A stretch of DNA of 64,000 nucleotides. Source: Candidatus Heimdallarchaeum endolithica. Its GTDB lineage: Archaea; Asgardarchaeota; Heimdallarchaeia; Heimdallarchaeales; Heimdallarchaeaceae. Positions 14,498 to 39,781 of this stretch are shown one piece after another. Each line of letters begins with the position of its first letter. The stretch's first letter is position 1. The notes under the pieces are model-generated. The model did no database searches. It saw only the letters and a program-made list of their open reading frames with translations, and was not told where the DNA came from. Both the position numbers and the translations under genes were made by a program. Where the stretch lies: positions 544,001 to 608,000 of the forward strand of contig CP084167.1 of assembly GCA_021513715.1 (NCBI GenBank). The letters are read 5' to 3'.

Positions 14498-17400
14498 TTA
14501 TTCTTTCTTCTTACCTTCACCTATAATTTCCCAATCACGATATTGGCTAAGTAAACGGTCAATCTCATTATCAATATCAATAGTTTCTTTTCTTACAAAA
14601 GATTGCTCAAGTTCATAATATTCACCAATATCAGGGTTAGCTTGTAGGATATCTTTGAGATACTCTTCAACAACAGATTTAGAAAGACCGCTAAGTTCGG
14701 AAATTCGTTGCAAAGTAACAGAAATGTTAGGTTTGAATTGGTTAAGCAAATTAATGAGAGTTTTATATTCTTCTTCTCTCTTCAATGCTTTCATGTACTC
14801 AGATTTAGTTTTATAACCTTGAGCAGAGATTTCCTCCCACTCAGACTTAGTTTTAAATCCTAACTTCATTGCTGTAAACATTTCTTTGATAGAAGAAAAA
14901 CCAAAAGAAGAAGCTCTTTTACGAAGATAAAGTCTAATTCCTATAAAAGTCAAAAAAGCAACAGCACCAGTAACAATGACAGCACCTGTAACTATTGAAA
15001 TAATTGTGATCATTCTTTTAACTTTCAATTTATTTTCTAAATTCGATTTAGGATTAAGGGGATTAAGACCATTTTCTATTTCCTTACCATCTTTATCTCC
15101 ATCTCCATCAGTGTCAGAATTGTTAGGGTCTGTTCCATAAATCTTTACTTCTTCATAATCAGTTAATCCATCACTATCAGAATCACTACTTGTGGGGTTA
15201 GTAAAATATTCTTTAATCTCTTCATAATCAGTTAATCCATCTTCATCTGTATCAGTACTATTAGCAAACGTACCAACATTAAATTCTTCAAGATTGGTTA
15301 AACCATCACCGTCTAAATCAGAGTTGGAATCATCTGTTAATGGGTCTAATCCAGAATGAACTTCATAACCATCAGGCATACCATCTTCGTCAGTGTCTGA
15401 GTTGTTAGCGAAAGTACCAAGAGTATATTCCTCAAAATTAGATAAGTTATCGTTATCGAAATCAGAATTATTATCATTAACAATTGCGTTTGTGCCTGTT
15501 TGAACTTCCCACAAATCATCCATCAAGTCACCATCTGTATCAGTATTATTAGCAAACGTACCAACATTAAATTCTTCAAGATTGGTTAAACCATCACCGT
15601 CTAAATCAGAGTTGGAATCATCTGTTAATGGGTCTAATCCAGAATGAACTTCATAACCATCAGGCATACCATCTTCGTCAGTGTCTGAAACCAAAGGAAC
15701 AGTACCATAAGTGTTAACCTCTTCTCCATCAGTTAAACCATCACTGTCAGTGTCAGAAACCAAAGGATCAGTACCATAAGTGTTAACCTCTTCTCCATCA
15801 GTTAAACCATCACTGTCAGTGTCAGAAGTAGTAGGATCAGTTTTATAATTTACTACTTCATTAAAATCATCCAATCCATCACTGTCAGTATCAACCTTAC
15901 TCATATCTGTCCCTAAAATCTCCTCCTCATGATCAAACAACCCATCACTGTCTGTATCTAAATATGTTCCAGTTCTTTGATTGGTAACTGAATCAGTATA
16001 GAGAGGAGCATATCCAAGACCAAAAGAATTCCAAACAGACACACCATTGTTGTATACAGCAATTATTTCTAGTTCTGAATCATTATCTATATCAGCAACA
16101 GCTAAAGAAGAAAAAGAAACATCACTAATTGTTTTTTTTGGCCAACCAGGAATAACAGTACCATCAATATTCCAAATCGTTCCTCCCCCTCCATACCCTG
16201 CAATTACTTCTAAGGATGAATCGCCATCAACATCAGCAACTGCTAAAGAAGAAACGGAACCAAGCGCTGTTTTTGGCCAATCAGGAATAACAGCACCATT
16301 ACTATTCCAAATAGTAACTCCACCTTCATACCCTGCAATTACTTCTAAGGATGAATCATTATCAATATCAGCAACAGCTAAAGAATAAACAGAACCACTT
16401 GTTGTTTTTGGCCAACCAGGAACAACAGTACCATCACTATTCCAAATAGTGACTCCACCATTTAAAGTTTCTCCATCAAAATATCCTGCAATTACTTCTA
16501 AGGATGAATCATTATCAATATCAGCAACAGCTAAAGAATAAACAGAACCATTTGCTGTTTTTGGCCAATCAGGAATAACAGTACCGTCACTATTCCAAAT
16601 AGTGACTCTACTATCATCCCCGGCAATTATTTCTAGGGATGAATCGCCATCAACATCAGCAACAGCTAAAGAATAAGTATATCCACTTGTTGTTTTTGGC
16701 CAACCAAGAATAACAGCACCATTACTATTCCAAATAGTGACTCCACCTTCATACCCTGCAATTACTTCTAAGGATGAATCATTATCAATATCAGCAACAG
16801 CTAAAGAATAAACAGAACCACTTGTTGTTTTTGGCCAACCAGGAACAACAGTACCATCACTATTCCAAATAACTACTTCACTATTATACCCTGTAAGTAT
16901 TTCTAGGGATGAATCGTCATCAACATCAGCAACAGCTAAAGATCTAACAGAACCACTTGTTGTTTTTGGCCAACCAGGAACAACAGTACCATCACTATTC
17001 CAAATAGTGACTCCACCATCGTTGTAATCACCGTACCCTGCAAGTATTTCTAAAGATGAATCGTCATCAACATCAGCAACAGCTAAAGAATAAACATAAT
17101 CACTTGTTGTTTTTGGCCACGAAGATAAAATTGAATAATAATTAATAAAAAAGTTATAACGAGTGTTGGTGGTATCATAGTTAATTGATACCCAATTAAA
17201 AACATTAGTGCTGCTAATTTGAGCAGCTAAAATATAACCAGAATAATCGATATAGTATAAATATTGACCTTGAATAGTAATTATTCCATTTGTATGCAAA
17301 TAACCCGATAATAATTGTTCATTCGTGGATGAGGAATAAAAGTGCTTTGCATAAACATTTGAAGAGGAACAATATAGTAATTCCCAATCATAATCACTAT

Positions 17401-18643
17401 CCACATCTGTAATTATAGGTTCTTCCTGAATATTTAGCCCTAAAGAACTACTATAATCATTTAGTATCTCTCCGGTAAAAGAAAAACTTTTTTGTTCTCC
17501 GAGTGTTGATAAAGAGATTATTTCATACTCTCTATCCCAATTAATATCAACAATTATTGGACCTAACCACTCGGAATTAGTTGAATCAGTAAGCCAAGAA
17601 TGAATAGTAGTACCATTATTTGATAAAAGATAAAGATTTCTTCCTGCAGGGCAAACAATGTCTATTTTACTGTCTTTGTTGATATCTGCAACAGCAAGAG
17701 GATGAGTAATAGGATCAGTTAAATCTTTGGGAAAATTTGAGATAATGTCTCCATTTCCTTTCCACGCGTAAACTTTTCCATCGGTACTACCTACAATAAC
17801 TTCATTGGAACCATCATTGTCTACATCAGCTAAAACTGGTGCTACTATTACTTCTCCTCCTGTTGTTTTAGGCCAACCAGCTAAAAGATTTCCACTTCCA
17901 TCAAATGCATAAACTTTTGAACTGTTAGATCCAACCACTATCTCATTTTTATTGTCTCCATTAATATCTCCGACTGCTAATGTTTCTTCTACTGGCCCCT
18001 CACAATTGACTGGCCAACCTGGTATAATAGAACCATTACCGTAAAATGCGTAAACCGACCCATTAGCTGCCCCTATAATTATTTCTTCAGTTGCACTATT
18101 TCCATCTATATTAGCTAACATTGGTATGGATGTTAAGGCAACACCTATGCTTTTTCCACCTACCCAATTTGAAGATTCTGTACCATCTGTCTCGTAAACT
18201 CTTATTATACCATTTAATGTTCCCACGACAATTTCATAATTTCCATCTCCGTCTATATCTCCTGTTCCAGGCCCTCCTTTTAACTGTCCCCCTACATATA
18301 TTGGCCAACTACCAAAAGAATTAAGAGATTGAGAGATTTTTTTACCTGAAAAATTGTTATCTAAAAGTTCAGAACGGGAAGAAGTTGTTTTGATCTCTAT
18401 GTCGTTGTTCGCTTCTTCAACTCTTTGTAAATCTGTGTGATAATCATTATTTTGACTTACATTATTTTGACTTACATTATTTTGACTTACATTATTTTGT
18501 TGTGAATCTAAAATGATATTATTAAAATCTTTCATCACTAGAGAATTTGTAGTCATTGAACTTGTAATTATAATTAGTAATGCTACTACCATTCCTAAAT
18601 ATTTTGATTTCCCTCTAAAACTTTTTTTCATTCGTTTCATCAT
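14498..18643 (-). CDS. Large surface protein: signal peptide, two FG-GAP/VCBS-like beta-propeller blocks, TSP3-like DxDxDG repeats, TM helix and cytoplasmic winged-helix-like tail
   Basis: Repeated (G/A)DxDxDxxxEI(V/I) motifs, many DTDSDGLTD repeats, a hydrophobic TM near residue 1225, and C-terminal ISVTLQRISELSGLSKSVVEEYL. Confidence 0.85.
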   Translation of the reverse strand: MMKRMKKSFRGKSKYLGMVVALLIIITSSMTTNSLVMKDFNNIILDSQQNNVSQNNVSQNNVSQNNDYHTDLQRVEEANNDIEIKTTSSRSELLDNNFSGKKISQSLNSFGSWPIYVGGQLKGGPGTGDIDGDGNYEIVVGTLNGIIRVYETDGTESSNWVGGKSIGVALTSIPMLANIDGNSATEEIIIGAANGSVYAFYGNGSIIPGWPVNCEGPVEETLAVGDINGDNKNEIVVGSNSSKVYAFDGSGNLLAGWPKTTGGEVIVAPVLADVDNDGSNEVIVGSTDGKVYAWKGNGDIISNFPKDLTDPITHPLAVADINKDSKIDIVCPAGRNLYLLSNNGTTIHSWLTDSTNSEWLGPIIVDINWDREYEIISLSTLGEQKSFSFTGEILNDYSSSLGLNIQEEPIITDVDSDYDWELLYCSSSNVYAKHFYSSSTNEQLLSGYLHTNGIITIQGQYLYYIDYSGYILAAQISSTNVFNWVSINYDTTNTRYNFFINYYSILSSWPKTTSDYVYSLAVADVDDDSSLEILAGYGDYNDGGVTIWNSDGTVVPGWPKTTSGSVRSLAVADVDDDSSLEILTGYNSEVVIWNSDGTVVPGWPKTTSGSVYSLAVADIDNDSSLEVIAGYEGGVTIWNSNGAVILGWPKTTSGYTYSLAVADVDGDSSLEIIAGDDSRVTIWNSDGTVIPDWPKTANGSVYSLAVADIDNDSSLEVIAGYFDGETLNGGVTIWNSDGTVVPGWPKTTSGSVYSLAVADIDNDSSLEVIAGYEGGVTIWNSNGAVIPDWPKTALGSVSSLAVADVDGDSSLEVIAGYGGGGTIWNIDGTVIPGWPKKTISDVSFSSLAVADIDNDSELEIIAVYNNGVSVWNSFGLGYAPLYTDSVTNQRTGTYLDTDSDGLFDHEEEILGTDMSKVDTDSDGLDDFNEVVNYKTDPTTSDTDSDGLTDGEEVNTYGTDPLVSDTDSDGLTDGEEVNTYGTVPLVSDTDEDGMPDGYEVHSGLDPLTDDSNSDLDGDGLTNLEEFNVGTFANNTDTDGDLMDDLWEVQTGTNAIVNDNNSDFDNDNLSNFEEYTLGTFANNSDTDEDGMPDGYEVHSGLDPLTDDSNSDLDGDGLTNLEEFNVGTFANSTDTDEDGLTDYEEIKEYFTNPTSSDSDSDGLTDYEEVKIYGTDPNNSDTDGDGDKDGKEIENGLNPLNPKSNLENKLKVKRMITIISIVTGAVIVTGAVAFLTFIGIRLYLRKRASSFGFSSIKEMFTAMKLGFKTKSEWEEISAQGYKTKSEYMKALKREEEYKTLINLLNQFKPNISVTLQRISELSGLSKSVVEEYLKDILQANPDIGEYYELEQSFVRKETIDIDNEIDRLLSQYRDWEIIGEGKKKE
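15244..15688. repeat. Near-identical 157-bp direct repeat (15244-15400 and 15532-15688) inside the TSP3-like region
   Basis: The copies lie 288 bp (96 codons) apart and differ at about one position by eye. Confidence 0.85.
15690..15827. repeat. 69-bp tandem duplication (DTDSDGLTDGEEVNTYGTxPLVS x2)
   Basis: gtaccataagtgttaacctcttctccatcagttaaaccatcactgtcagtgtcagaa occurs at 15702 and 15771. Confidence 0.85.
16030..17120. repeat. Eight tandem ~135-153 bp coding repeats (WPKT..SLAVADxDxDSSLE..GVTIWN.DG)
   Basis: High nucleotide identity between units, e.g. ttgttgtttttggccaacc and atcagcaacagctaaaga recur. Confidence 0.9.
18445..18499. repeat. 15-bp tandem repeat, ~3.7 copies (cattattttgactta; encodes QNNVS)
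   Basis: Perfect copies start at 18445, 18460 and 18475, with a partial copy at 18490. Confidence 0.9.
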
Positions 18644-18894: not shown

Positions 18895-20019
18895 ATGATT
18901 TCTTACTATTCCATAGGCTTATTCTTATTTGAGCAACTTACTTTTATTACTAGTAGCATTATTCTATTTAGAACTTACAAGCAGACTCGTTTTCTTTCTC
19001 ACTTCCTTTTGGGTACTAGCTATCTTTTGTGGATTTTCAATTCTATAGGAAGATTTATTACTTCTTTTTTCAGTGAAAATGTAATAATCTTTAACAATAC
19101 TCGACTTATTTCACTTATTTGGATCATTGTTAATTGTTTATTAATTCTTGGAATGATTTTCGTTTTTTATTCTTTTATTTATTTCAAGACTAACAGATTA
19201 CATCCTATAATAAACATAGTTAGTTTTTTAGGAGGAGCATTATTTCTTGCATTTATAATACCTGATTTCACTGAAATAGCTTACTCTGAACAACTTGGAG
19301 CTTGGTCAGCGAAATATAATATTTGGATATCTGTTCTAGTTGTTCCGATGCTTCTATTCTTCATTTTTTCTTTTATTCTTCCCATTTATACAAAACTTAT
19401 TAGAACTACAGACAAAGATATTCGTAAGCAACTGTTTGTTCAGATAGTCGGGCTTATTATTGTAATTGTCTGGGCATTTTTCGCTGGTTTTACTAACAAT
19501 GCTGTACTTCGAGCTGTTCGTCCTTTCCTTATGGCAGCAGGTTGGTTTATCTGGTCTTTAACTTTGATTATGGATCCTTTCAATATAATGATTTCTAATG
19601 CCAAAATTAGTCAATTATTAATTACAACAACTAGCGGTTTACCTATCTATTATGACGACTTTACTTTTGATGAAAAAGAAGTAAAAAATGAGATTTCTGC
19701 AGATCTAGCTTCAGGTTTAATTTCAGGAGTTACCCAAGCTTTAGAGCAAATAATGGAAAGAAAATCGGAATTAAACACTGTTGTGTATAAAGACAAAGTT
19801 ATAGGTACTACTACAATAGGTTATCTTCAAGCGTATATTTTTGGAGAAAGATTTGATAAGGCTTTAAAAACGGTATTAAATGTTCTTCTAAGAGAAATAC
19901 AAGATAATCCAGCTCTTGCTTTAAAAATAACTCCTAACTTTGTAGATCTAGATGGGGCTTCAGGAAAAATCTTGAAACTTATAATTGAAAGAAATCTAAA
20001 ACGAATATTAGTTATTTAG
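18895..20019 (+). CDS. 7-TM membrane protein with C-terminal longin-like domain
   Basis: Seven hydrophobic segments, then KISQLLITTTSGLPIY...LASGLISGVTQALEQIM, a pattern typical of Asgard longin-like domains. Confidence 0.7.
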   Translation: MISYYSIGLFLFEQLTFITSSIILFRTYKQTRFLSHFLLGTSYLLWIFNSIGRFITSFFSENVIIFNNTRLISLIWIIVNCLLILGMIFVFYSFIYFKTNRLHPIINIVSFLGGALFLAFIIPDFTEIAYSEQLGAWSAKYNIWISVLVVPMLLFFIFSFILPIYTKLIRTTDKDIRKQLFVQIVGLIIVIVWAFFAGFTNNAVLRAVRPFLMAAGWFIWSLTLIMDPFNIMISNAKISQLLITTTSGLPIYYDDFTFDEKEVKNEISADLASGLISGVTQALEQIMERKSELNTVVYKDKVIGTTTIGYLQAYIFGERFDKALKTVLNVLLREIQDNPALALKITPNFVDLDGASGKILKLIIERNLKRILVI

Positions 20020-20935: not shown

Positions 20936-21679
20936 TTATATTTGTATTAATTCTGAAGATTCTATTTCCAGCGAAAGAGTCTCTTTTTCATTTTGTATTC
21001 TTAAAAGTCCATTATCCTCAATTCCTTCTACTGTATAGTCTTGATTTTTGTAGATAATATTATTTTTGCATAATATATCGTAAGAATTAAATTCTTTTAA
21101 GATTTCTTCAAAATTATTTCTTAAAACTTTGTTAATATAGTTTTTAATTTGCTTATACAATTCTTTTGTTAATTTCTCATTATCTGCTTTTATTTTCAAG
21201 GATTCATTTATTGAAATAGCTATAGAATTGACTGGAGAGTCTAAAGAAAGAACTTTGTTATTTGTATTTATTCCTATTCCAACGAGTAGAAAATTACAAT
21301 TTGTATCTTTCACTGTATCAATTAAAATTCCGCCTAACTTTCTTTTTTCTAGAATTATATCATTTGGCCATTTAATTTTAACAGGTATAGACAGAATTGT
21401 TTCTATTGCTTTTCTTACTCCTAAAGCAATAGAATAATGAAGAAAAGCATATTGCTTTTGATTTATTTCTTCTTTTTTACAAAAAACAAACGTTCCCCAC
21501 CAACCTCCTTTTGGAGAAAACCATTTATTCTGTTTTCTTCCAATACTTGCAGATTGTTCCTCTGCTATTATTAACAAATCTTCATTTTTTGCTAATTCTA
21601 AATAAGACAAAGCTACATTTTGAGTGGAAGGAACAGATTGAAAATGAATGATTTTCAAGGAAAAGGATTCTTGAACCAT
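20936..21679 (-). CDS. birA: Biotin--protein ligase (no N-terminal HTH)
   Basis: VPSTQ, AEEQ..GRK..KWFSP, IKWPND, KLGGIL and VGIGIN motifs. Confidence 0.9.
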   Translation of the reverse strand: MVQESFSLKIIHFQSVPSTQNVALSYLELAKNEDLLIIAEEQSASIGRKQNKWFSPKGGWWGTFVFCKKEEINQKQYAFLHYSIALGVRKAIETILSIPVKIKWPNDIILEKRKLGGILIDTVKDTNCNFLLVGIGINTNNKVLSLDSPVNSIAISINESLKIKADNEKLTKELYKQIKNYINKVLRNNFEEILKEFNSYDILCKNNIIYKNQDYTVEGIEDNGLLRIQNEKETLSLEIESSELIQI

Positions 21680-21792: not shown

Positions 21793-23367
21793 ATGGCTCG
21801 TATTACTCATATTGGACATGATAAAGGAAATTTGGAAGAAAAAAGACAAACAATACTTTCACTAAGAGAAATTTCGCTAAAAGGTGGTGGAGAAGAAAAA
21901 ATAGCTAGTCAACACAAAAAAGGAAAGCTTACAGCAAGGGAGAGAATAGAGTTATTAGTTGACGAAAATTCTTTTTGCGAAATAGATCAAATAAGAAAAT
22001 CTCAGCATTCTGAATTAGAAATGGAGAAAATAGAAGGAGACGGGGTAGTAACAGGTTATGCAACTATTAATGGTAGACGAGTCTTTATTTATAGTCAAGA
22101 TTTTACAGTTTTGGGAGGAAGTTTAGGAAAAACTCATGCAAAAAAAATATGTAAAGTTATGGATCATGCTCTACAGAGTGGGTGTCCTATAATAGGCATA
22201 CTTGACTCAGGAGGAGCAAGAATTCAAGAAGGAATAGATTCTCTAGCAGGATATGGCGAAATTTTTTATAGGAATGTAATGAGCTCAGGAGTAGTTCCCC
22301 AAGTTTCAATTATTTTAGGTCCCTGTGCTGGAGGAGCTGTCTATTCTCCTGCACTAACTGATTTTATTATTATGAATCAAATTAATTCATTTATGTTTGT
22401 TACTGGTCCTCAAGTTGTTAAGACAGTTACAGGGGAAGATGTTTCATTCTATGATTTAGGTGGAAGTGAGGTACATGGTTCTCTTAGTGGAGTTAGTCAT
22501 TTAGTAGGAGAAGATGAAGAGGAAACAATAAATTTAGCTAAAAAACTTTTATCTTACCTCCCATCGAACAATTTAGATGACCCTCCACAAGAAATAGATG
22601 ATATAGAAGAAAATGGTCAAGATATTCTTTCTGATATTATTCCAGAGCAGGAAAACGAGCCTTATGATATGAAAAAAGTAGTTGAAACAGTTTTAGACCA
22701 AGACAGTTTCTTTGAATTACAAGAAAGTTGGGCAAAAAATATTATTGTTGGCTTTGGGAGGTTAGATGGTTTAACTGTTGGTATTATTGCAAACCAACCT
22801 TTATTCCTTGGAGGTGCTATAGAATATAATGCTGCAGATAAAGCAGCTAGATTTATTCGTTTTTGTGATTCATTTAACATCCCCATAATTACTTTCGTTG
22901 ATGTACCTGGATTTATGCCAGGGGTAAAACAAGAGCATGAAGGAATAATTCGTCATGGAGCTAAAATGCTTTTTGCTTATTCAGAAGCTACTGTCCCAAA
23001 ACTTGCAGTAATAACAAGAAAAGCTTATGGAGGAGCTTATATTGTTATGAGCTCAAAGCATTTAGGAGCTGATATTAATTTTGCTTGGCCTACAGCAGAA
23101 ATAGCTGTCATGGGGGCAGAGGGAGCTTGTAATATTATTTATAGAAAAGAACTGAAAAAAGCTGAAAATCCAGAACAAGCTTTGCAAGATTTTGTTGCAA
23201 AATACAAAAAACAATTCAGCAATCCTATTCGAGCAGCTGAAAAAGGATATATTGACAAAGTTATTTTGCCTGAAGAAACAAGGATTGAACTTTCTAATGC
23301 CTTGAAATTTTTACAAAATAAAAGAATAGATATCCCGAAAAGAAAACACGGGAATATTCCACTTTAA
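21793..23367 (+). CDS. pccB: Acyl-CoA (acetyl/propionyl-CoA) carboxylase carboxyltransferase subunit
   Basis: GKLTARERI, GDGVVTG, DFTVLGGSLG, DSGGARIQEG, GPCAGGAVYSPA, DVPGFMPG, RKAYGGAY and KRKHGNIPL. Confidence 0.93.
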   Translation: MARITHIGHDKGNLEEKRQTILSLREISLKGGGEEKIASQHKKGKLTARERIELLVDENSFCEIDQIRKSQHSELEMEKIEGDGVVTGYATINGRRVFIYSQDFTVLGGSLGKTHAKKICKVMDHALQSGCPIIGILDSGGARIQEGIDSLAGYGEIFYRNVMSSGVVPQVSIILGPCAGGAVYSPALTDFIIMNQINSFMFVTGPQVVKTVTGEDVSFYDLGGSEVHGSLSGVSHLVGEDEEETINLAKKLLSYLPSNNLDDPPQEIDDIEENGQDILSDIIPEQENEPYDMKKVVETVLDQDSFFELQESWAKNIIVGFGRLDGLTVGIIANQPLFLGGAIEYNAADKAARFIRFCDSFNIPIITFVDVPGFMPGVKQEHEGIIRHGAKMLFAYSEATVPKLAVITRKAYGGAYIVMSSKHLGADINFAWPTAEIAVMGAEGACNIIYRKELKKAENPEQALQDFVAKYKKQFSNPIRAAEKGYIDKVILPEETRIELSNALKFLQNKRIDIPKRKHGNIPL

Positions 23368-23388: not shown

Positions 23389-26300
23389 ATGAAAACTCAA
23401 AAAGAACTAAAAAATGAACTACAAATTAAATATCCAATTTTCGGATATAATCCTATTGGACTTACTGATCCCACGTTTGCTATTGAAATCTCCAGACTTG
23501 GAGGAGTGGGATTATTTAACACTATTGGACTTGAACAAGAAGAACTAACTAAGATTCTTGATCAATGCGAACTTAATCTGCCCACACAACTATGGGGCGT
23601 AAGGATTAACGATCTTTCTCACATTAAATGGATAAATCATGAACGAAGTATTCCAATCGTCATCCTACCGGAGAAACCTACAAGATTACAACTGGATAAA
23701 CTGCGTAAAATAAGTAAATTTATTGTCTCTGAAGTTTTATTTGTTGAAGAAGCAAAAAGTCATCTTGAATGGTCAGATTTCTTTTTAGTTAAAGGTATTG
23801 AAGCAGGAGGAAAAGTAGGTACAAAAGCTTCTTTTATTCAGATTCAAGAGTTTTATGAAACTGGATGGCCTTTTATCATTCAAGGAGGAATTGGAGCTTT
23901 TAATATTAGTTCTGCTCTAATAGGAGGAGCAATAGGAGTAGTTTTTGAGGGACAATTATACCAATTTCCTGAATGTCCTCTTTCTGAAGAAGTGAAAAAA
24001 TATCTTGCTTCTTTAGGTGAAAATGATTCTTTTATTATCAATGAAAGTGGTAAAGAAGGTTATAGAATTTCTGGAAAATTAGCAAATAAGGCTATTAGAG
24101 AGATAAAGCAATTAGAAGAAGAATCAAGTGAGGAAAAAATACTTGATAGGATCACTGAATTTGAAAAACCACATGAACAATTTGGTTTTAAGAGTCAAAA
24201 CATAAAACACGCATTTTTACCACTAGGTAATGATGTTTTCTTCTCCACATTCTTCAAAAAAAGATTTGGAAATTTAGCAAATTTTGTGAAACAAGCTCTT
24301 AAGATAGCTGATGAACAAATAGAAATTGCTCTAAAAAATTGGCCTTTTGCAAAAGGATCTCCTTTATCCAATTTTCTTGGGACAAAATATCCTATTATCC
24401 AGGGGCCTATGGCTAATGTTTCTGATAATGTAGATTTTGCTGTTAATGTAGCGAAAAGTGGAGCTCTACCTTTCTTAGCTTTAGGTGGACTACTAAAAGA
24501 AGAAACAGAGGAGCTGTTTGATAAAGTTAGAAAAAGTGAACTTTTGAAATATTCCTACGGCTGTGGAATTATAGGTTTAGAAGCAGTTAAACAAAGGAGA
24601 GAAGAGCATCTATCTTTAATGAGAGAACTTAAACCCCCTTTTGCTTTAATTGCTGCAGGAACAGTTAATTTAGCAAAACAAGTACAAGAGATGGGTTTTA
24701 AGACTTTATTACATACTCCTGCTCTATCAATGTTCAAAGATTCTATCAAAAATGGGATAGATCTACAGATTTTAGAAGGGAGTGAATGTGGAGGTCACAT
24801 TGGTCTCCTTTCATCCTTTATTTTATGGGAAAGCATATTGGAATTTTTAGATGAAAATAGAGAACAGATAGAAAAACCTTTGAAAATAGTTTTTGCAGGT
24901 GGGATATCTGATGGAACTAGTTCTGCGATGTTAGCAACCATGATCGCTAAACATCTAGATATAATAGAACCAGCAATACAAATGGGTACATCCTATTTAT
25001 TTACAGAAGAAATTTTAGAAACAAAAGCTTTAACTGGATTTTATCAAGAGCTTCTTCTTAATGCAAATTACACCAGAATAATAGGTTCAACAGTAAATAC
25101 TCGGGCACGAGCTGCACCTTCTCCTTTTGTAGATCAAACAATTAAAAGAGAAAGAGAGAGAATTAGACAAAAAATACCAATAAAGGAAAGGAAAGAACTT
25201 TATGAGAAAGATAATCTAGGTGCTTTAAGAATAGCAGCTAAAGCTGAAAAATGGAATAACAATCATATTCCTGGTACAGGAACTACCCAATTTATAAAAA
25301 TCGATGAAAAGGAACAAAAAAACTTTGGATGTTTTATGGCAGGAGAAGTAATAGCTAAAAAACGAAGTATATACAAGATAGAAGATTTACATTATGATAT
25401 TTCAATAATTGGAAAGGAAATTCTAGAAAAACAGTCAACTTCTATTGCTGAATATTTAGTTCCAAATGAAAAACTGGAAGTTTATTCTAAGGAACAAAGT
25501 CCTCTTGTTATAGATAGTAGTAATAAAATTGCTATTGTAGGAATAGGCAGTTTCTTTCCTGATGCTCCAAACACTGAAAAGTTCTGGGAAAATATTATTA
25601 ACAAACATTATTCTATAACAGAAGTTCCCATTGAAAGATGGGATCCTAAATATTATTATGATGAAGATCGAACAGCTCCAGATAAAACTTATACTAAAAT
25701 AGGAGCGTTTGTAAAAGAATTCAAATTTAAACCAATTCAATTCAAGATTCCTCCTAAAGTAGCTGAAAAGATGGATGAAGTACAGAAATGGTCATTAGTT
25801 GCTGCAAAAGAAGCTTTAGAAGATGCTGGTATTCCAACAGATGGAAAGAAGCGTCTACCTATAGGAGTAATTGTAGGAAATGCTTTAGGTGGAGAGAATC
25901 AGAGATTAACTAACAGAAGGTTACACTATCCTGAAATTGAAGAACAACTAAGAGTTTTGTTAAGTTCGAAATTATCTGATGAAGAAGTAGAAAAACTTGT
26001 TTCTTCTTTTAGAAAAGAATATCTCAGTAAATACGCAGAAATCACAGAGGATACTATGCCTGGAGAATTGTCTAATATAGTTGCAGGAAGAATAGCAAAT
26101 ATTTTCAATTTATCTGGTAAATCAATGACTACAGATGCTGCTTGCGCATCTTCTCTAGCTGCTCTAGATATAGCTGTAAAAAGTTTGTTGAACAATGATT
26201 TTGAAACAATTCTTGTGGGTGGAGCAGATAGATCAATGGATGTTTCTTCTTATGTTAAATTTAGTAAGATCGGTGCTCTTTCTGCAACTGGTTCTCGACC

Positions 26301-29300
26301 TTTTGATTCCAAGGCAGACGGTTTTGTAATGGGAGAAGGATGTGGTTTTATAGTCTTAAAAAAATTGAAAAAAGCTATTAAAGACAATGACAAAATTTAT
26401 GCCATAATTGATGCTGTTGGTTCTTCCTCTGATGGTAAAGGAAAAGGAATTACTGCTCCAAATCCTTTAGGACAAAAAGAAGCTATTAAAAGAGCTCTTG
26501 AACAAGCTAAAGTTTCTCCTTCTGAGATAGATTTAATTGAAGCACATGGAACTTCCACTATCGTAGGAGATAAAACAGAAGTTCAAGTTTTAAATGAAAT
26601 TTTCACAGAAAAACAAAAAGAAAGAAAAAGGAAAATAGCTCTTGGTTCAATTAAAAGCCAAATTGGTCATTTAAAGAGCGCATCGGGTATAGCTTCTGTT
26701 ATTAAAGTTGCTTTAGCTCTTGACAAAAAAGTTCTTCCACCAACAATAAATGTTCAAGAACTTAATCCTACTATTGATTGGAATAATTCTAATCTTTTTG
26801 TCAATCTTGATGCTCAACCATGGGAAAAGGTTGACAACTCTATAAGAAGAGCAGGAGTTTCTGCTTTTGGTTTTGGAGGAACAAATTATCATACAATCTT
26901 GGAAGAATATATTCCAGAAGCGAAGTACATAGAAAAAGAAAAACAGCCTATAGTTGAGTTAAAAGAACAAAAAGATGAAGTTTGCTTCCTTTATACAGGG
27001 CAAGGAAGCCAATATTTAGGTATGATAAAGGAACTTTATGATAATTATCCAACTGTAAGAAAAACAATAGATGAAGCCTCTGTTCTTGCTAAAGAGGATT
27101 TAAATACTGATTTACGTGAAATAATTTTTGGCTCATCTCAACTTTCCAAAGGTGAAAATGAAGAAAGATTAAAGCAAACAGAATACACTCAACCTTCTCT
27201 CTTTGTAGTTGAAGTTGCTTTAACTAGACTATTGAAAGAAAAAGGAATTGAACCTACAAGAGTAGCTGGGCATAGTTTAGGAGAATATACTGCTTTAGTT
27301 GCTTCAGGAGTGTTCTCTTTTGAAGATGGACTAAAAGCTGTAATAGAAAGAGGAAAAGCAATGGCAAAAGCTTCTAAAAGTATCCCTGGAGCAATGGCAG
27401 CTATTCTTACATCTCAAGAAAAAGTTAAGGAAATTATAGAAAAAGTAAATGAAGGTTATATTACTGTAGCCAACTATAACTCATTAAACCAAACTGTGAT
27501 TTCTGGAGAAGAAAAAGCTGTAAACAAAGCAATAGAACTTTTCTCTGCAAGAAAAATAAAAGCAATAAAACTAAACGTTTCGACAGCTTTTCATTCTGTT
27601 ATTGTTAAAGATGCAGAAATAGAAATGGAAAGAGTGCTCAACAGCCTAAATTACAATAAGCCTTCAATTCCTGTCTATTCAAATGTAACTGGAGGTTTGT
27701 ACCCTGACGAGCCCTCTAAAATTAAAGAACTTCTAATTAATCAGCTCTGTAATTCTGTTCAATGGGTTAAGATAATTGAAGAGATGTATAAAGATGGAGG
27801 AAGAATTTTTGTAGAAGTAGGACCTAAAAAAGCATTATACAATTTCGTCAGAGATATTTTGTCAGAAAAGGAAGATATTCAAACTTTTCTTACTTTAAAC
27901 CCTAAAGTAGGAGAGTTGAAATCTTTTAATGATACTGTCTCTAAATTAAAAATGAACAAAAGAAGAGAAATCGAAACCCCGGTTCAAACTAAGGAAAAAA
28001 TTGTTTACAAAGAAACAGCGCTAGATGTTTTACTTAAAAATAAAGAAATTAACAATTTGGTTTCTAAACCCTATTTCAGTGAGTATCTGAAAGAGAATAG
28101 TAATCTGCTTTCATCTATAATGAAACAAGGTTACCAGCAGTTTTCAAAGTACAGAGAATCATTGGTTATTGCTGAAAAAGCTAAATATTGGGATATAAAC
28201 TTTGATCTCATTGGAGTAACTGGGGTAGGAATTGGTCTCCCAGGAAAGAATAGAACTGTTTTCTCAGATGATAACTTTGATCTTATTCTTAATGGAACAA
28301 ATCTTATAGAATCTGTTGATGATATAATAAAGCAAGAAACTTTAGACAAAAACATTGTTAGGTTAGTTAAATCCCCAGATGGTAACGCAACCTTTGAAGC
28401 GATTGACGATATAAATAAAGTTATTCAACTTGCAGCACAAATAGGAGAATTAAACTTTAAAGAATTAGGCATAGAAGATAAACTGGCTAAAGCTTTAGAC
28501 TCCACTTTTATTATGGCTATAGGCGCAGGGCTAGAAGCTTTGAAAGACGCTGGCATCCCTCTCGTTGAAAGCAAAATAGTTACTTCAACTGGAAAAACAT
28601 TAAAGGGGAGCTGGACTTTACCAGAACCCTTACAACATGATACTGGAATAGTTTTTGCTTCTGCATTTCCAGGATATGATAATTTAGTAGATGAAGTAAC
28701 AAGACATCTTGTGGCTAAATTTGAAAACAAAACAAATAAAGAGGTTGAGGAGATATTTGAACAATTAATAAATGTTGTATCAAATCCTGAAGCAAAAGAA
28801 GAGATCTCTAATTGGTTCTTGGAAAAACAATCTCTATTAGAAGAAAAAGAAGAACAAAAATATACTTTCAGTAGGGAGTTCCTTTACAAAGTTTTATCGA
28901 TGGGACATTCTCAATTTGCTCAATTTATTAAAGCTAAAGGACCAAATACACAAGTTAATGCTGCTTGTGCTTCCACAACTCAAGCAATAGGGGTAGCAGA
29001 AGATTGGATAAGAACTGGAAGATGTAAGAGAGTAATAGTAATAGCTGGAGACAATGCTGCAAGCAAGAATCTATTACCTTGGATAGGTGGAGGATTCTTA
29101 GCTGCTGGGGGAGTAACCACAAAAGCAGACGTTAAAGAAGCTGCTCTACCTTTTGGAAAAGAAAGACATGGATTAATTGTAGGTTCAGCTTCTGCAGGTC
29201 TTGTAATTGAAAGCAGAGAATCCTATGAAGAAAGAGGAGTTAAACCTATAGTAGATCTTTTAGGTACATTTATGGCAAATAGTGCTTATCATGGTTCTCG

Positions 29301-36993: not shown

Positions 36994-38397
36994 TTAGTTT
37001 TGAGATGAGATGTTTATTCCTTTAGTTTTGATATAAGGAGTTTCTAAATAACCACTAACTTTCTTTGTTTCCTTGCTTAAAGATAGGATATTTTTCAGTA
37101 CATCGAAAACATTACCTGCAATAGTCACATTGGTTAAAGGTGTTGTAATTTCACCATTTTTTATGAGTTGAGCACCTTTAGCTACTCCAGAGAATATACC
37201 ATTCTCTGATCTTTGAGAACCAGCAAAATATTCAAAGATTATTCCTTCTTTTATATCTTCTATCATTTCATCATATTTTATATCTCCTGGTTTAATTACT
37301 GGTACATTTGGAAAAATATTATTTGGAGGATTCATAAAACTACTATTAATAAATCCACGATAAGAATTTCCTGTTGATTGAGTGTTTGCTTTATTTGCAG
37401 TCTTTATATCAAACAAATGTGTCATCAATACTCCTTCTTTAATTATTTCTAGTTCTTTGACAGGTGTTCCTTCGTCATCAAAAGGTCTAGCTGTAGAGGA
37501 TTTTCCATCCAATGAATTATCTATAAATGAAAAGTCGTCTATCGCTACTTTTTCACCTATACTATCTTTCCAAAGTGATTGATTGTGTTGTGTTCTTTCT
37601 GCTGATATAGCCATTGCCATAACAATAAATAAGGGACTAAGGACGGCATCAGGCTTGAAAACAACTATATCTGAATCTATGCTTTTTAATTTTTCAACAT
37701 TGACATTTCTAATAGCTCTTTCTACTAGTTCTTTGCCAAATTTGTAGAAATCAACTTCTTTTTGATCTTTTACACTAAATGAATCTAATACAAAAGAACC
37801 TACTTTCTCTCCTTCTCTCGCAATTGCAAGAAATGAACTATCAAGACTATTTCTGATATAATTTCCTTCAACCCCAAGAGAGTTTACTATTCCCACATAT
37901 TCTTCAGAAAGGATGATTCGACTAAGGTCTGTTCTAACGCTTATAGGTGCTTCTTCAAAAGGTAATAGTATCTGTTTAGCACCATCTATTAGTTCTTCAA
38001 CTGTAAAACTAGATAATCGTTTCGAAAAAAGTCCTTCTATTGTTGAGTAGGAACTGGGAGGAGCCAGAGCTATTCCTTCTTTTTTAGGTTTGACTTTTAA
38101 CATTACAATTGCTTGTTCTACTGTTTGTTCTATTGCTTTTTTATCTGCCTTATTGGTATAACTAAATCCTTCTACAGAATCCTGTAAAACTCTTATTCCA
38201 AAACCTAATTCTTGCACTTCTTTCTCATTAACTATCTCTTTTCCAGAGCAAGTAACTTCTAGTTTTTTGTTATCAGAGAAAAATACTTCAGCATCTCTAA
38301 CTCCTTTCTTTTCAGCATACTCAATAGCATGTTGTGCAAGATAATAAGCTTCATCTCTATTAATATTTGATTCACTCATTTTAGTTTCCTCCTGCAA
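36994..38397 (-). CDS. pmbA: TldD/PmbA family protein, PmbA (TldE) type
   Basis: GFGIRV, RPFDDEG, STGN and NVTIAGN motifs; no HExxGH motif; lies directly downstream of tldD. Confidence 0.85.
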   Translation of the reverse strand: MQEETKMSESNINRDEAYYLAQHAIEYAEKKGVRDAEVFFSDNKKLEVTCSGKEIVNEKEVQELGFGIRVLQDSVEGFSYTNKADKKAIEQTVEQAIVMLKVKPKKEGIALAPPSSYSTIEGLFSKRLSSFTVEELIDGAKQILLPFEEAPISVRTDLSRIILSEEYVGIVNSLGVEGNYIRNSLDSSFLAIAREGEKVGSFVLDSFSVKDQKEVDFYKFGKELVERAIRNVNVEKLKSIDSDIVVFKPDAVLSPLFIVMAMAISAERTQHNQSLWKDSIGEKVAIDDFSFIDNSLDGKSSTARPFDDEGTPVKELEIIKEGVLMTHLFDIKTANKANTQSTGNSYRGFINSSFMNPPNNIFPNVPVIKPGDIKYDEMIEDIKEGIIFEYFAGSQRSENGIFSGVAKGAQLIKNGEITTPLTNVTIAGNVFDVLKNILSLSKETKKVSGYLETPYIKTKGINISSQN

Positions 38398-39781
38398 GCA
38401 TTGCTTTAACTGCTATATGTGGACCTCCAGCATCTACCTTTGCTGGTTGAATCTTCCCACAAGTACCTGAACCCAAAGAAATAACAAAATCGTTTCCAAC
38501 TCCAATAATGTTAGATAAAACTTCAAAAGCGTTTCCAGTTAAAACTGGACTTTGGAAAATTTCATCAGTTATCTCTCCTTTAGTAATTTTGAAAGCTTCT
38601 AATGCTCCAAACATAAATTCTCCACTTGAGTCTGCTTGTCCATTCTGTAAGGATTTAAGGTAGTAACCATCACCTATTGCTTCTAAAAGTTCTTCAAAGC
38701 TCATATCTCCAGATTCGATGTAAGTATTCCTCATTCTAACTATTGGTTCATCAGCAAATGTAAAAGCTCTCGCATTTCCTGTAGGTTCAACACCTAATTT
38801 CGTTGCTAGCTCCCTATTTGTCATATATCCTGTCATAACTCCATTGGTAATGATTTTCACTTCTTTTCCTTTTACTCCTTCATCATCGAAAGGTAACCAT
38901 CCTACACCCATCCAGTTAGTGCTTTCTTTAAATGGGGCATCTACTATAGTTATCCGCTCATCACAAACTTTTTTCCCCAACTTACCTTGAGTAAAAGAGC
39001 CTGCAAGAACTAAATCTGCTTCTGCAGTGTGCCCTATAGCTTCGTGTGCAAGAACACCTACTATTTGGTGATCTAATAACAAATTGTGTATTCCTGCAGG
39101 GGGTAAAGTTGCATCTGCTAATTGAGAAGATTTTTCACAGGAAGATTTTACTAGTTCATCTAGAGGATGTAAGTCAAAAAACTCTGCTCCACAAGTATGA
39201 GACCAGGATTTATATCCACCAGCTATTTTTCCTTCTTTTGAAGCAACAGCATAACTAATAACTGTTGGTTTCATATCTTCCCATTCAACTCTCGTTCCTT
39301 CATTAGTAAAAATAATTCTCTTATCAATTACTTCATTGTAGCTAATTTGAAGACTCTTGACTGCTGAATAGTCATTTTTTAATTTAGAAGCTTCTTGTAT
39401 CATCTTTATTTTTTCTTCAAATGAGATATCTAATAAGCTAATTTTCCTCGGTGAAATAGCTTTTTCATCAATTATTTCTACTTCAGCTAATTGAACTTTT
39501 TCACTTTTTGAGTTCGCTGAGTTTCTAGCTAACAAAACAGCATTAGATACTATTTTCTCAGCATTTTCTTTGCTTAACTTATTCGTACTAACAAAAGCCC
39601 AACTTCCATTCACTAGAACCCTAATTCCTATTCCGTTTCTAGATCCTACATTTGTGTTAATTTCTCCATTCTTATATACTAGATCTGCAGAATATTTGTC
39701 TTGAAACCTAGCTTCTACATATTGTGCTCCTTTTTTTTCAGCATATTCAAGTACATAATTTAATAAATCTCTTATTTCCAA
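38381..39781 (-). CDS. tldD: Metalloprotease TldD
   Basis: GIGIRV, HEAIGH..EAD, FDDEG, PTGNARA, RMRNT and CGK.Q motifs; GGTGA SD before a TTG start. Confidence 0.92.
   Translation of the reverse strand: MEIRDLLNYVLEYAEKKGAQYVEARFQDKYSADLVYKNGEINTNVGSRNGIGIRVLVNGSWAFVSTNKLSKENAEKIVSNAVLLARNSANSKSEKVQLAEVEIIDEKAISPRKISLLDISFEEKIKMIQEASKLKNDYSAVKSLQISYNEVIDKRIIFTNEGTRVEWEDMKPTVISYAVASKEGKIAGGYKSWSHTCGAEFFDLHPLDELVKSSCEKSSQLADATLPPAGIHNLLLDHQIVGVLAHEAIGHTAEADLVLAGSFTQGKLGKKVCDERITIVDAPFKESTNWMGVGWLPFDDEGVKGKEVKIITNGVMTGYMTNRELATKLGVEPTGNARAFTFADEPIVRMRNTYIESGDMSFEELLEAIGDGYYLKSLQNGQADSSGEFMFGALEAFKITKGEITDEIFQSPVLTGNAFEVLSNIIGVGNDFVISLGSGTCGKIQPAKVDAGGPHIAVKAMLAGGN

Follow-up and report, generated by a model that had tools for sequence, protein, structure and literature searches.

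A fully fused, Pfa-related megasynthase as the probable sole carrier-protein-dependent fatty acid synthase of the Asgard archaeon Candidatus Heimdallarchaeum endolithica

The stretch of DNA analyzed here, 64,000 nucleotides from Candidatus Heimdallarchaeum endolithica (GenBank assembly GCA_021513715.1, contig CP084167.1, positions 544,001 to 608,000 of the forward strand; hereafter the window), carries a gene for a 3,515-residue megasynthase in a single ATG-to-stop frame. Domains were assigned with Pfam and NCBIfam, and positions refer either to the whole stretch or to residues of the 3,515-residue protein. From the N terminus, the order is a pseudo-enoyl reductase (ER1), an enoyl reductase (ER2), a ketosynthase (KS1), a malonyl-CoA:acyl carrier protein transacylase (MAT), a second ketosynthase (KS2), three acyl carrier proteins (ACPs), a ketoreductase (KR), a dehydratase (DH), and an Sfp-type 4'-phosphopantetheinyl transferase (PPTase) (Table 1). 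An earlier note on this DNA had drawn the same single open reading frame (ORF) and the same order, and its domain coordinates agree with ours within a few codons. Its description of the protein as a fully fused relative of the Pfa synthases also holds; the best NCBIfam match is PfaA (TIGR02813), which scores 969.1 bits in four stretches, under the curated cut-off of 1010.1, with its best stretch in the KS1 region. The families of fungal-type fatty acid synthase (FAS) gave zero NCBIfam or Pfam matches in the protein. The GC content of the gene, 0.31–0.34, is similar to that of the flanking DNA.

In an alignment of 18 full-length homologues, archaeal and bacterial, whose overall identity is 32–59%, the catalytic residues are invariant in all domains except ER1. 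These comprise Cys919, His1053, and His1094 of KS1; Ser1296 (in GHSLGE), Arg1321, and the malonyl-type AFHS motif of MAT; and the PPTase motifs GIDIEK and WTAKESLTK, with Asp3416, Glu3418, Trp3451, Lys3454, and Glu3455. The KR retains TGGARGIT, Lys2863, Ser2887, Tyr2900, and Asn2904, and the segment preceding its catalytic subdomain, 30802–31506, is presumably the structural half of the same domain. The DH displays H3035xxxGxxxxP3044, FFHGPSF, and E3198xxxQ3202, and its counterparts in homologues match PF14765. In KS2, Cys1860, His2008 (SHETYTP), and His2048 (GHSMG) are invariant in archaeal and bacterial members alike, and the best Protein Data Bank (PDB) matches are FabF and the mitochondrial ketosynthase. 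Because the Cys-His-His triad is kept, KS2 should be read as a complete condensing enzyme, not as a chain-length factor.

The two ER regions that the earlier note had listed fare differently. ER2 is sound, with QGPMA (338–342) and ECGGH (466–470) both invariant and structural matches to FabK (PDB 9pl0, 2z6i, and 7l00). ER1 aligns colinearly with ER2 in BLASTP (25% identity over 197 residues, E 5e-4) but has FGYNP in place of QGPMA, a motif lost in every aligned family member, and its catalytic His is replaced by Lys, Ile, Leu, Phe, Arg, or Trp in 18 of 18. With both gone in all members, ER1 is best described as a conserved pseudo-domain.

The carrier domains depart from convention in a different way. 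A canonical ACP (PF00550) has a Ser at the start of helix II that accepts phosphopantetheine. Here the motifs are DLGIDSIKAAE in ACP1, DLGIDTVKQAE in ACP2, and DLGVDSIKIAE in ACP3. We compared this site among 118 homologues, gathered with the N-terminal 700 residues as the query. All 87 of the other homologues that bear KS2 have Thr in every ACP, and the shorter ER-KS-AT-ACP-KR relatives that lack KS2 have Ser wherever an ACP motif was detected. The Ser-Thr-Ser pattern is restricted to this megasynthase, to that of the sister Candidatus Heimdallarchaeum aukensis, and to one further protein (P0002). On the KS2 tree, the three proteins group in a single small clade, and the Ser residues of ACP1 and ACP3 are therefore derived. 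The three ACPs of these proteins are also unusually diverged from one another, with pairwise identities of 38–44% versus 46–81% in relatives. Judged by this comparison, the Thr of ACP2 is the family-typical form. A literature search, with subscription journals outside its reach, found no published description of the Thr-type ACPs of this family.

The genome is a single closed, circular contig of 3,326,783 bp, and in it the megasynthase stands alone. Genome-wide, the FabF model matches only KS1 and KS2, and carrier domains occur only in the megasynthase (all three ACPs with the PP-binding model, two of three with the AcpP model). The integrated PPTase that the earlier note had reported is indeed present and is the only one in the genome, where PF01648 has its single match. 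The FabZ model has zero matches across the closed genome, and the note's count of one PKS-type (polyketide synthase-type) DH and no FabA-like pair stands: a Pfam scan of the protein detected no FabA/FabZ-type dehydratase, nor is there one in the genome. FabH was not found in the genome either. The FabH-like matches at C1:1407357 were considered as a priming ketosynthase and rejected; the best of them is the archaeal HMG-CoA synthase, and the others are its neighbors. This enzyme, with an archaeal leucyl-tRNA synthetase and a glycerol-1-phosphate (G1P) dehydrogenase, marks the genome as archaeal, and the nearest homologues of the megasynthase belong to Heimdallarchaeaceae, Hodarchaeota, and other Asgard archaea. 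The bacterial host that the earlier note had assumed must therefore be replaced by an Asgard archaeon. The genome thus joins a sole source of acyl-ACP to an acetyl-CoA carboxylase (ACC) gene block and to genes for acyl consumers, the combination by which a primary FAS is recognized in a genome.

The ACC block surrounds the megasynthase gene itself. The spacing is operon-like, with 21 nt between the carboxyltransferase and megasynthase genes, 35 nt from there to an α/β-hydrolase gene, and 21 nt from that to the gene for biotin carboxyl carrier protein (BCCP). Upstream, the biotin ligase and carboxyltransferase genes lie 5' of the megasynthase in five of five archaeal loci, and the carboxyltransferase copies, 64–97% identical, are always immediately adjacent. 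Downstream flank is available for four archaeal loci. In all of these, the hydrolase (47–99% identical) follows immediately and BCCP is likewise on the 3' side; biotin carboxylase follows in three (L044, L045, and L074) and was not detected in the fourth (L042). In the neighborhood comparison, this block of biotin ligase, carboxyltransferase, hydrolase, BCCP, and biotin carboxylase was not seen around bacterial homologues, and the hydrolase specifically is absent from the bacterial megasynthase loci examined. What most bacterial loci do share is a KR, a DH, and a PPTase after KS2. The hydrolase matches esterases in the PDB and contains a GESFGG nucleophile elbow together with GDKDE and GADHNF, features that make it a candidate chain-releasing thioesterase. 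The biotin ligase was also considered as a lipoate ligase of the same family, and this was rejected on its match to TIGR00121. The PlsY gene of the window, which adjoins the megasynthase only in the genus Heimdallarchaeum among the loci compared, encodes a divergent form: it scores 124.5 bits with TIGR00023 (cut-off 137.2), against 174.6 for the copy at C1:2094437, and relative to Aquifex PlsY (PDB 5xj5) it has GSKNVGGRN for GSGNVGATN and GGRGVAT for GGKGVAT.

Table 1. The megasynthase gene, its domains, and adjacent genes (positions in the window)
Feature	Positions	Strand	Basis or remark
PlsY paralogue (acyl-phosphate:glycerol-phosphate acyltransferase family), divergent, one of three in genome	20167..20895	+	PF02660 117 bits
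Biotin-[acetyl-CoA-carboxylase] ligase	20936..21679	-	TIGR00121 139.4 bits, cut-off 83.1
Acyl-CoA carboxylase carboxyltransferase, single-chain PCC-beta/MmdA type	21793..23367	+	PF01039 631 bits; TIGR01117 755 bits
Megasynthase ORF, 3,515 aa	23389..33936	+	single ATG-to-stop frame
Pseudo-ER (ER1), aa 1-310	23389..24318	+	degenerate duplicate of ER2
ER2, FabK/PfaD-type FMN enoyl reductase, aa 326-618	24364..25242	+	NMO/FabK-type; TIGR03151 FabK 101 bits
KS1, PfaA-like ketosynthase, aa 712-1185	25522..26943	+	PF00109, PF02801, PF16197
MAT, aa 1198-1499	26980..27885	+	PF00698; FabD TIGR00128 247.5 bits
KS2, about aa 1608-2115	28210..29733	+	FabF-like, 119 bits (genome search)
ACP1, site Ser2217 (AGT, 30037-30039)	29944..30150	+	PF00550
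ACP2, site Thr2323 (ACA, 30355-30357)	30265..30468	+	PF00550
ACP3, site Ser2434 (AGT, 30688-30690)	30598..30801	+	PF00550
KR catalytic subdomain, aa 2707-2931	31507..32181	+	PF08659 108 bits
DH, PKS-type (double hot-dog), about aa 3005-3230	32401..33078	+	PF21089, aa 3028-3097
Sfp-type PPTase, aa 3329-3515	33373..33933	+	PF01648 54.5 bits (aa 3329-3480), PF22624
Ser-Asp-His α/β-hydrolase	33972..34733	+	PF12146 and other α/β-hydrolase families
BCCP	34755..35237	+	PF00364; BCCP-type NCBIfam matches
Biotin carboxylase (ACC subunit)	35302..36807	-	NF006367 621.9 bits, cut-off 597

Proteins that use acyl chains are encoded elsewhere in the genome. LipB requires acyl-ACP. A bacterial-type LipB gene (153 bits, cut-off 84) adjoins that of LipA at C1:2082826-2084340, both above curated cut-offs and approximately 10 kb from the canonical PlsY, the only one of the three PlsY genes to exceed the equivalog cut-off. 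In a phylum-wide sample of 161 Asgard genomes, 31 of which have the megasynthase and 130 of which do not, 24 of the 25 LipB-positive genomes also carry the megasynthase; the exception, the only LipB-positive genome among the 130, is 87% complete. LipB has zero matches in four archaeal control genomes. PlsY was found in all 29 sampled genomes of those families in which the megasynthase is near-universal. Because related genomes are not independent, we treat these co-occurrence counts as patterns and attach no statistical tests to them. The genome further encodes nine DegV/FakB proteins, four of them clustered at C1:3260909-3267470 and the rest at five other sites, and two stand-alone Dak2 proteins (C1:684507-685136 and C1:1748522-1749205), both of which match the FakA N-terminal domain far better than DhaL. 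Separately, LipB in the Asgard sample is confined to megasynthase-bearing families, and PlsY is peculiar in two families of the sample (f13 and f6), lying within ORFs of approximately 405 residues, apparently as a fusion, in one and occurring in 6–12 copies per genome in the other.

The megasynthase is a regular possession of the close relatives of this archaeon, being present in 32 of 41 relatives, in all eight high-quality genomes, and in all 13 genera. Phylum-wide it is patchy (31 of 161), but nearly every genome has it in four families that are related to each other and in one further family. The earlier note had called the domain order unusual. It is instead the fixed order of a large family, with about 90 full-length, KS2-bearing homologues in the databases, from Asgard archaea, Desulfobacterota, Chloroflexota, and Actinomycetota; the bacterial members include the cultured Desulfocicer and Desulfobacter as well as Anaerolineae and Actinomycetota. 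On the KS2 tree, an archaeal clan, to which this protein belongs, is separated from a bacterial clan with a support of 99. The tree is unrooted and thus carries no direction of transfer. Three other archaeal genomes that bear the megasynthase likewise lack FabF and FabZ, as do some bacterial hosts, including G177. Desulfocicer vacuolatum DSM 3385 (L060) and Desulfobacter curvatus DSM 3379 (L061) have no FabF or FabZ above curated cut-offs, and a Chloroflexi metagenome-assembled genome (MAG; L047) has none either and has zero ketosynthases outside the megasynthase. This family may be the primary FAS of some cultured sulfate reducers. Some relatives of H. endolithica additionally encode free-standing KS2-like proteins of approximately 550 residues, 45–49% identical to KS2 (G002:C1:136631-138184, G005:C12:45924-47504, G006:C197, G025:C171, and G032:C190); this genome has none.

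How does the protein compare with characterized or catalogued synthases? The closest published description is that of the Type R Pfa-like clusters of Candidatus Koribacter, Candidatus Solibacter, Elusimicrobium, and Roseiflexus (Shulse and Allen 2011, PMC3098273), whose product is uncharacterized. These are defined by a pfaA homologue of the order KS-MAT-"CLF"-ACP(3–6)-KR with an associated PPTase, and the Koribacter cluster has an ACC gene inside it (PMC3098273). When matched to this published description, the KS1-MAT-KS2-ACP3-KR core and PPTase of the megasynthase fit the definition. Also akin to Type R are the Chloroflexota and Actinomycetota relatives, which have no ER, have Thr-type ACPs, and have DH and PPTase after KR; on the KS2 tree, their loci belong to the bacterial clan. 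The megasynthase differs in that a pseudo-ER and a FabK-type ER are fused to its N terminus, and DH and PPTase to its C terminus, in one polypeptide. Moreover, the position labeled CLF (chain-length factor) in that scheme, which by definition has no active-site Cys, is occupied here by KS2 with its invariant Cys-His-His, so that, judged by residues, the name given to this position in the 2011 catalogue seems to be positional only. Finally, the host is an archaeon without type II FAS (FAS II), and an ACC/biotin ligase/hydrolase block is conserved around the gene.

The classical PfaA–E system shares with the megasynthase the PfaA-like series KS1-MAT-ACPn-KR-DH with tandem ACPs, and ER2 (PfaD/FabK-type) and the PPTase (in the role of PfaE) are both present with intact motifs, fused. 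Two ketosynthases are a trait of polyunsaturated fatty acid synthases too. The differences are that PfaB is missing, that neither the protein nor the genome has a PfaC-type KS-CLF with a FabA-like DH pair, that KS2 lies between MAT and the ACPs on a single chain, and that the predicted product is saturated. The enediyne polyketide synthases (PKSEs) are iterative type I enzymes of the order KS-AT-ACP-KR-DH-PPTase; they lack an ER, have a single KS and a single ACP, and produce a polyene. Compared by description, the megasynthase resembles them in this order and in its integrated C-terminal PPTase, but its predicted-active ER2, two KSs, and three ACPs set it apart from the PKSE type. In fungi and corynebacteria, the sole primary FAS is of type I, has a TIM-barrel ER that depends on FMN, and replaces FAS II; in the fungal enzyme the PPTase is integrated. 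The megasynthase would resemble these as a single primary FAS with an FMN TIM-barrel ER and, in the fungal case, with an integrated PPTase as well. Its chassis, however, is of the PKS/Pfa type, in which MAT is a separate domain, the DH is PKS-type, and the ACPs stand in tandem, and both its order and its ancestry are different.

Within archaea, the comparison is with the ACP-independent FAS complex of Sulfolobus, proposed as an archaeal route to de novo fatty acids, which uses CoA thioesters, a thiolase/DUF35 pair, a short-chain dehydrogenase/reductase (SDR), MaoC, and a medium-chain dehydrogenase/reductase (MDR) and has no ACP or PPTase (bioRxiv 10.1101/2024.07.05.601840). The megasynthase is likewise a proposed route to fatty acids in archaea but is ACP-dependent and unrelated. 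According to the same preprint, FAS I and FAS II are missing from archaea, and ACP and ACP synthase are missing from nearly all of them (bioRxiv 10.1101/2024.07.05.601840); for the Heimdall-group Asgards, the megasynthase locus contradicts this statement. Reviews describe the PlsY and PlsC homologues of Asgard archaea as unexplained and the acyl supply as unidentified. A 2020 survey of biosynthetic gene clusters (BGCs) listed one Heimdall MAG as having a possible PKS cluster. Beyond this survey and the 2011 catalogue, our search, which did not cover subscription journals, returned nothing on FAS, PKS, or megasynthases of Asgards, and it returned no characterized member of the family. In the same searchable literature, subscription journals aside, no case emerged of an identical architecture with a known product, a finding that would have undercut the earlier note's proposal.

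Taken together, these data make it likely, at a level well short of certainty, that the megasynthase is an iterative, fully reducing type I FAS of Pfa/Type R ancestry and the only ACP-dependent FAS of Ca. Heimdallarchaeum. The domain set, the intact catalytic motifs, the uniqueness in the genome, the gene context, and the phyletic patterns are the basis for this; from them we infer what the product is, how the two KSs are used, that Thr bears the cofactor, how chains are released, and which routes they then take. Malonyl-CoA would come from the neighboring biotin ligase, BCCP, biotin carboxylase, and carboxyltransferase. The PPTase would transfer phosphopantetheine from CoA to Ser2217, Thr2323, and Ser2434 of ACP1–3, and MAT would load malonyl groups. 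KS1 and KS2 would share the condensations; probably each handles a different range of chain lengths, or one primes and the other elongates. Each β-carbon would then be reduced completely by KR, the PKS-type DH, and the FabK-type ER2 to give a saturated acyl-ACP, with ER1 as a structural relic. A saturated product fits because there is one PKS-type DH and no FabA/FabZ-type dehydratase in protein or genome. Medium-chain acyl-ACP could supply lipoylation by LipB and LipA. Full-length chains may be freed by the co-transcribed α/β-hydrolase, converted to acyl-phosphate through the FakA-N/DegV-type proteins, and passed to the PlsY paralogues. The requirements would thus exceed the malonyl-CoA, CoA, and NAD(P)H named in the earlier note, as ER2 is expected from its family to need FMN and a separate release enzyme is also required.

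Several observations run counter to this reading. The enzymatic activity, product, and cofactor load of the megasynthase are predictions from sequence, and the DH has an invariant Glu3198 where Asp is usual. The route from fatty acid to diacyl phospholipid is incomplete because PlsC, PlsX, and a GpsA-type glycerol-3-phosphate dehydrogenase were not found in the genome (the genome paper also reported PlsC absent) and only the N-terminal part of FakA is represented. The FakA C-terminal domain was not found in the genome, and the ORFs beside the Dak2 proteins have no family match; with only Dak2/FakA-N proteins present, the acyl-phosphate step is one that we infer. PlsY also occurs in Asgard lineages that lack the megasynthase. 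G1P dehydrogenase (C1:2330534-2331604) and two genes for CDP-archaeol synthase (CarS) are kept, so that ether lipids are probably still made, and published accounts of cultured Asgard archaea report only isoprenoid ether lipids so far. At least one bacterial host (G180) retains a full FAS II, including FabF and FabZ, and the Type R relatives were catalogued as "secondary lipid" synthases (PMC3098273). In the sister H. aukensis PM71 (CP084166.1; 96% identity), the megasynthase gene has a 1,991-bp internal tandem duplication (L042:7716-9700, corresponding to window 25783-27773) that spans the greater part of KS1 and extends into the beginning of MAT. Because 1,991 is not a multiple of 3, the gene is split into frames of 1,510 and 2,729 residues. 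A second duplicated copy, of window 33390-35237 (the end of the PPTase, the hydrolase, and BCCP), lies downstream, and the duplication could be either a real disruption or an artefact of long-read assembly.

Some of these points bear on alternative functions. The catalogue label, the assignment of the Heimdall gene to a PKS cluster in the BGC survey, PfaA as the best family match, a core that coincides with the Type R secondary lipid cluster, tandem ACPs, which are a hallmark of Pfa-type synthases (PMC3098273), and the FAS II of the bacterial host all lend weight to the idea that the megasynthase is a secondary-lipid or polyketide synthase, making a specialized long-chain product such as a hydrocarbon precursor, a glycolipid tail, or a signaling lipid and not general fatty acids. 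We regard this as unlikely. The gene is core in the archaeal order, with its presence in every high-quality genome and every genus, and is not sporadic; it clusters with housekeeping ACC and biotin ligase genes and without tailoring enzymes; no other FAS is encoded, yet the ordinary acyl consumers LipB, PlsY, and DegV are; and the full KR-DH-ER set, with no FabA-type isomerase, favors plain saturated chains. A rather improbable alternative is that the essential output, as in the mitochondrial FAS, is octanoyl-ACP for lipoylation of 2-oxoacid dehydrogenase or glycine-cleavage proteins by LipB and LipA, with an insignificant share going to membranes. The adjacent LipB and LipA genes, the association of LipB with the megasynthase across the phylum, its lack of matches in the archaeal controls, and the retained ether-lipid genes all agree with this. 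So does Corynebacterium, whose control genome contains LipB and which relies on type I FAS. However, seven megasynthase-positive genomes of the sample have no LipB; three ACPs with a dedicated ACC and hydrolase suggest a greater flux than a cofactor would call for; the handling of free fatty acids and acyl-phosphate is indicated by the nine DegV and three PlsY genes; and LipB would have to reach an ACP that is embedded in the megasynthase.

Finally, the degenerate ER1, the ACP2 without its canonical Ser, and the frame-breaking duplication of H. aukensis could be taken as signs of a decaying or inactive relic of bacterial transfer without current function. This seems very improbable because the 10.5-kb frame is open, all catalytic motifs except those of ER1 are invariant despite the low overall identity, and the gene and its neighborhood are conserved across the archaeal order. 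Moreover, the ER1 degeneracy and the Thr-type ACPs are family-wide and conserved, unlike random decay, and the H. aukensis duplication may reflect its assembly. The megasynthase, ordinary in its parts and notable as a whole, is a variant of the Pfa-like type I synthases and most likely serves as the sole primary FAS of a Heimdall-group archaeon.

The interest that attaches to the host comes from the archaeal setting, the absence of any other FAS in the genome, and the ACC/PlsY/LipB context. By its predicted activities, one Asgard polypeptide would be fully equipped to make saturated fatty acids and to activate itself, which bears on how relatives of the ancestor of eukaryotes could make bacterial-style lipids. 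Few known archaea are more closely related to eukaryotes than the Heimdall-group Asgards, and a whole order of these keeps together a self-priming ACP-dependent synthase, a supply of malonyl-CoA, a candidate release enzyme, and the consumers LipB and PlsY. The question of whether fatty acyl lipids were already made by the archaeal ancestor of eukaryotes is thereby reduced to single-gene experiments. As a tentative extension, it is possible that this self-activating polypeptide runs a complete ACP-dependent fatty acid economy in these archaea, with the cofactor borne on Thr in most members. It would deliver octanoyl groups to lipoylation and acyl chains to PlsY for ester-linked glycerol-phosphate lipids, possibly on G1P, and would so be the acyl source that a mixed membrane of archaeal and bacterial type has lacked in accounts of the time before eukaryogenesis. 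For enzymology, the protein offers a compact single-polypeptide FAS with two ketosynthases, both predicted to be active, and a naturally occurring exchange between Ser and Thr where phosphopantetheine would attach, with both kinds of site usefully on one chain.

Some further observations concern the lipid genes and the rest of the locus. A PcrB-type geranylgeranylglyceryl phosphate synthase (GGGPS) was not found in the genome by HMM search or by tblastn with relatives' sequences; the only real tblastn matches are hexulose-6-phosphate synthases and were rejected as GGGPS. Within the family, only one genome of 24 has a strong PcrB/GGGPS match. The possibility that archaeal ether lipids have been lost was considered and dropped, since G1P dehydrogenase and the two CarS genes are present. 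On the far side of PlsY, 148 nt upstream of it, a 374-residue ORF (18895-20019, + strand) has zero Pfam or NCBIfam matches, and its look-alikes are hypothetical proteins almost exclusively of Asgard archaea. Beyond it is the gene of a probable large surface protein of 1,381 residues (14498-18643, - strand), which contains bacterial TSP3 repeats as well as seven FG-GAP-like ones. At the other end, a tandem pair of TldD/PmbA metallopeptidase genes (36994-39781, - strand) comes directly after biotin carboxylase, and a TldD homologue also trails the block in another Heimdall locus (L044).

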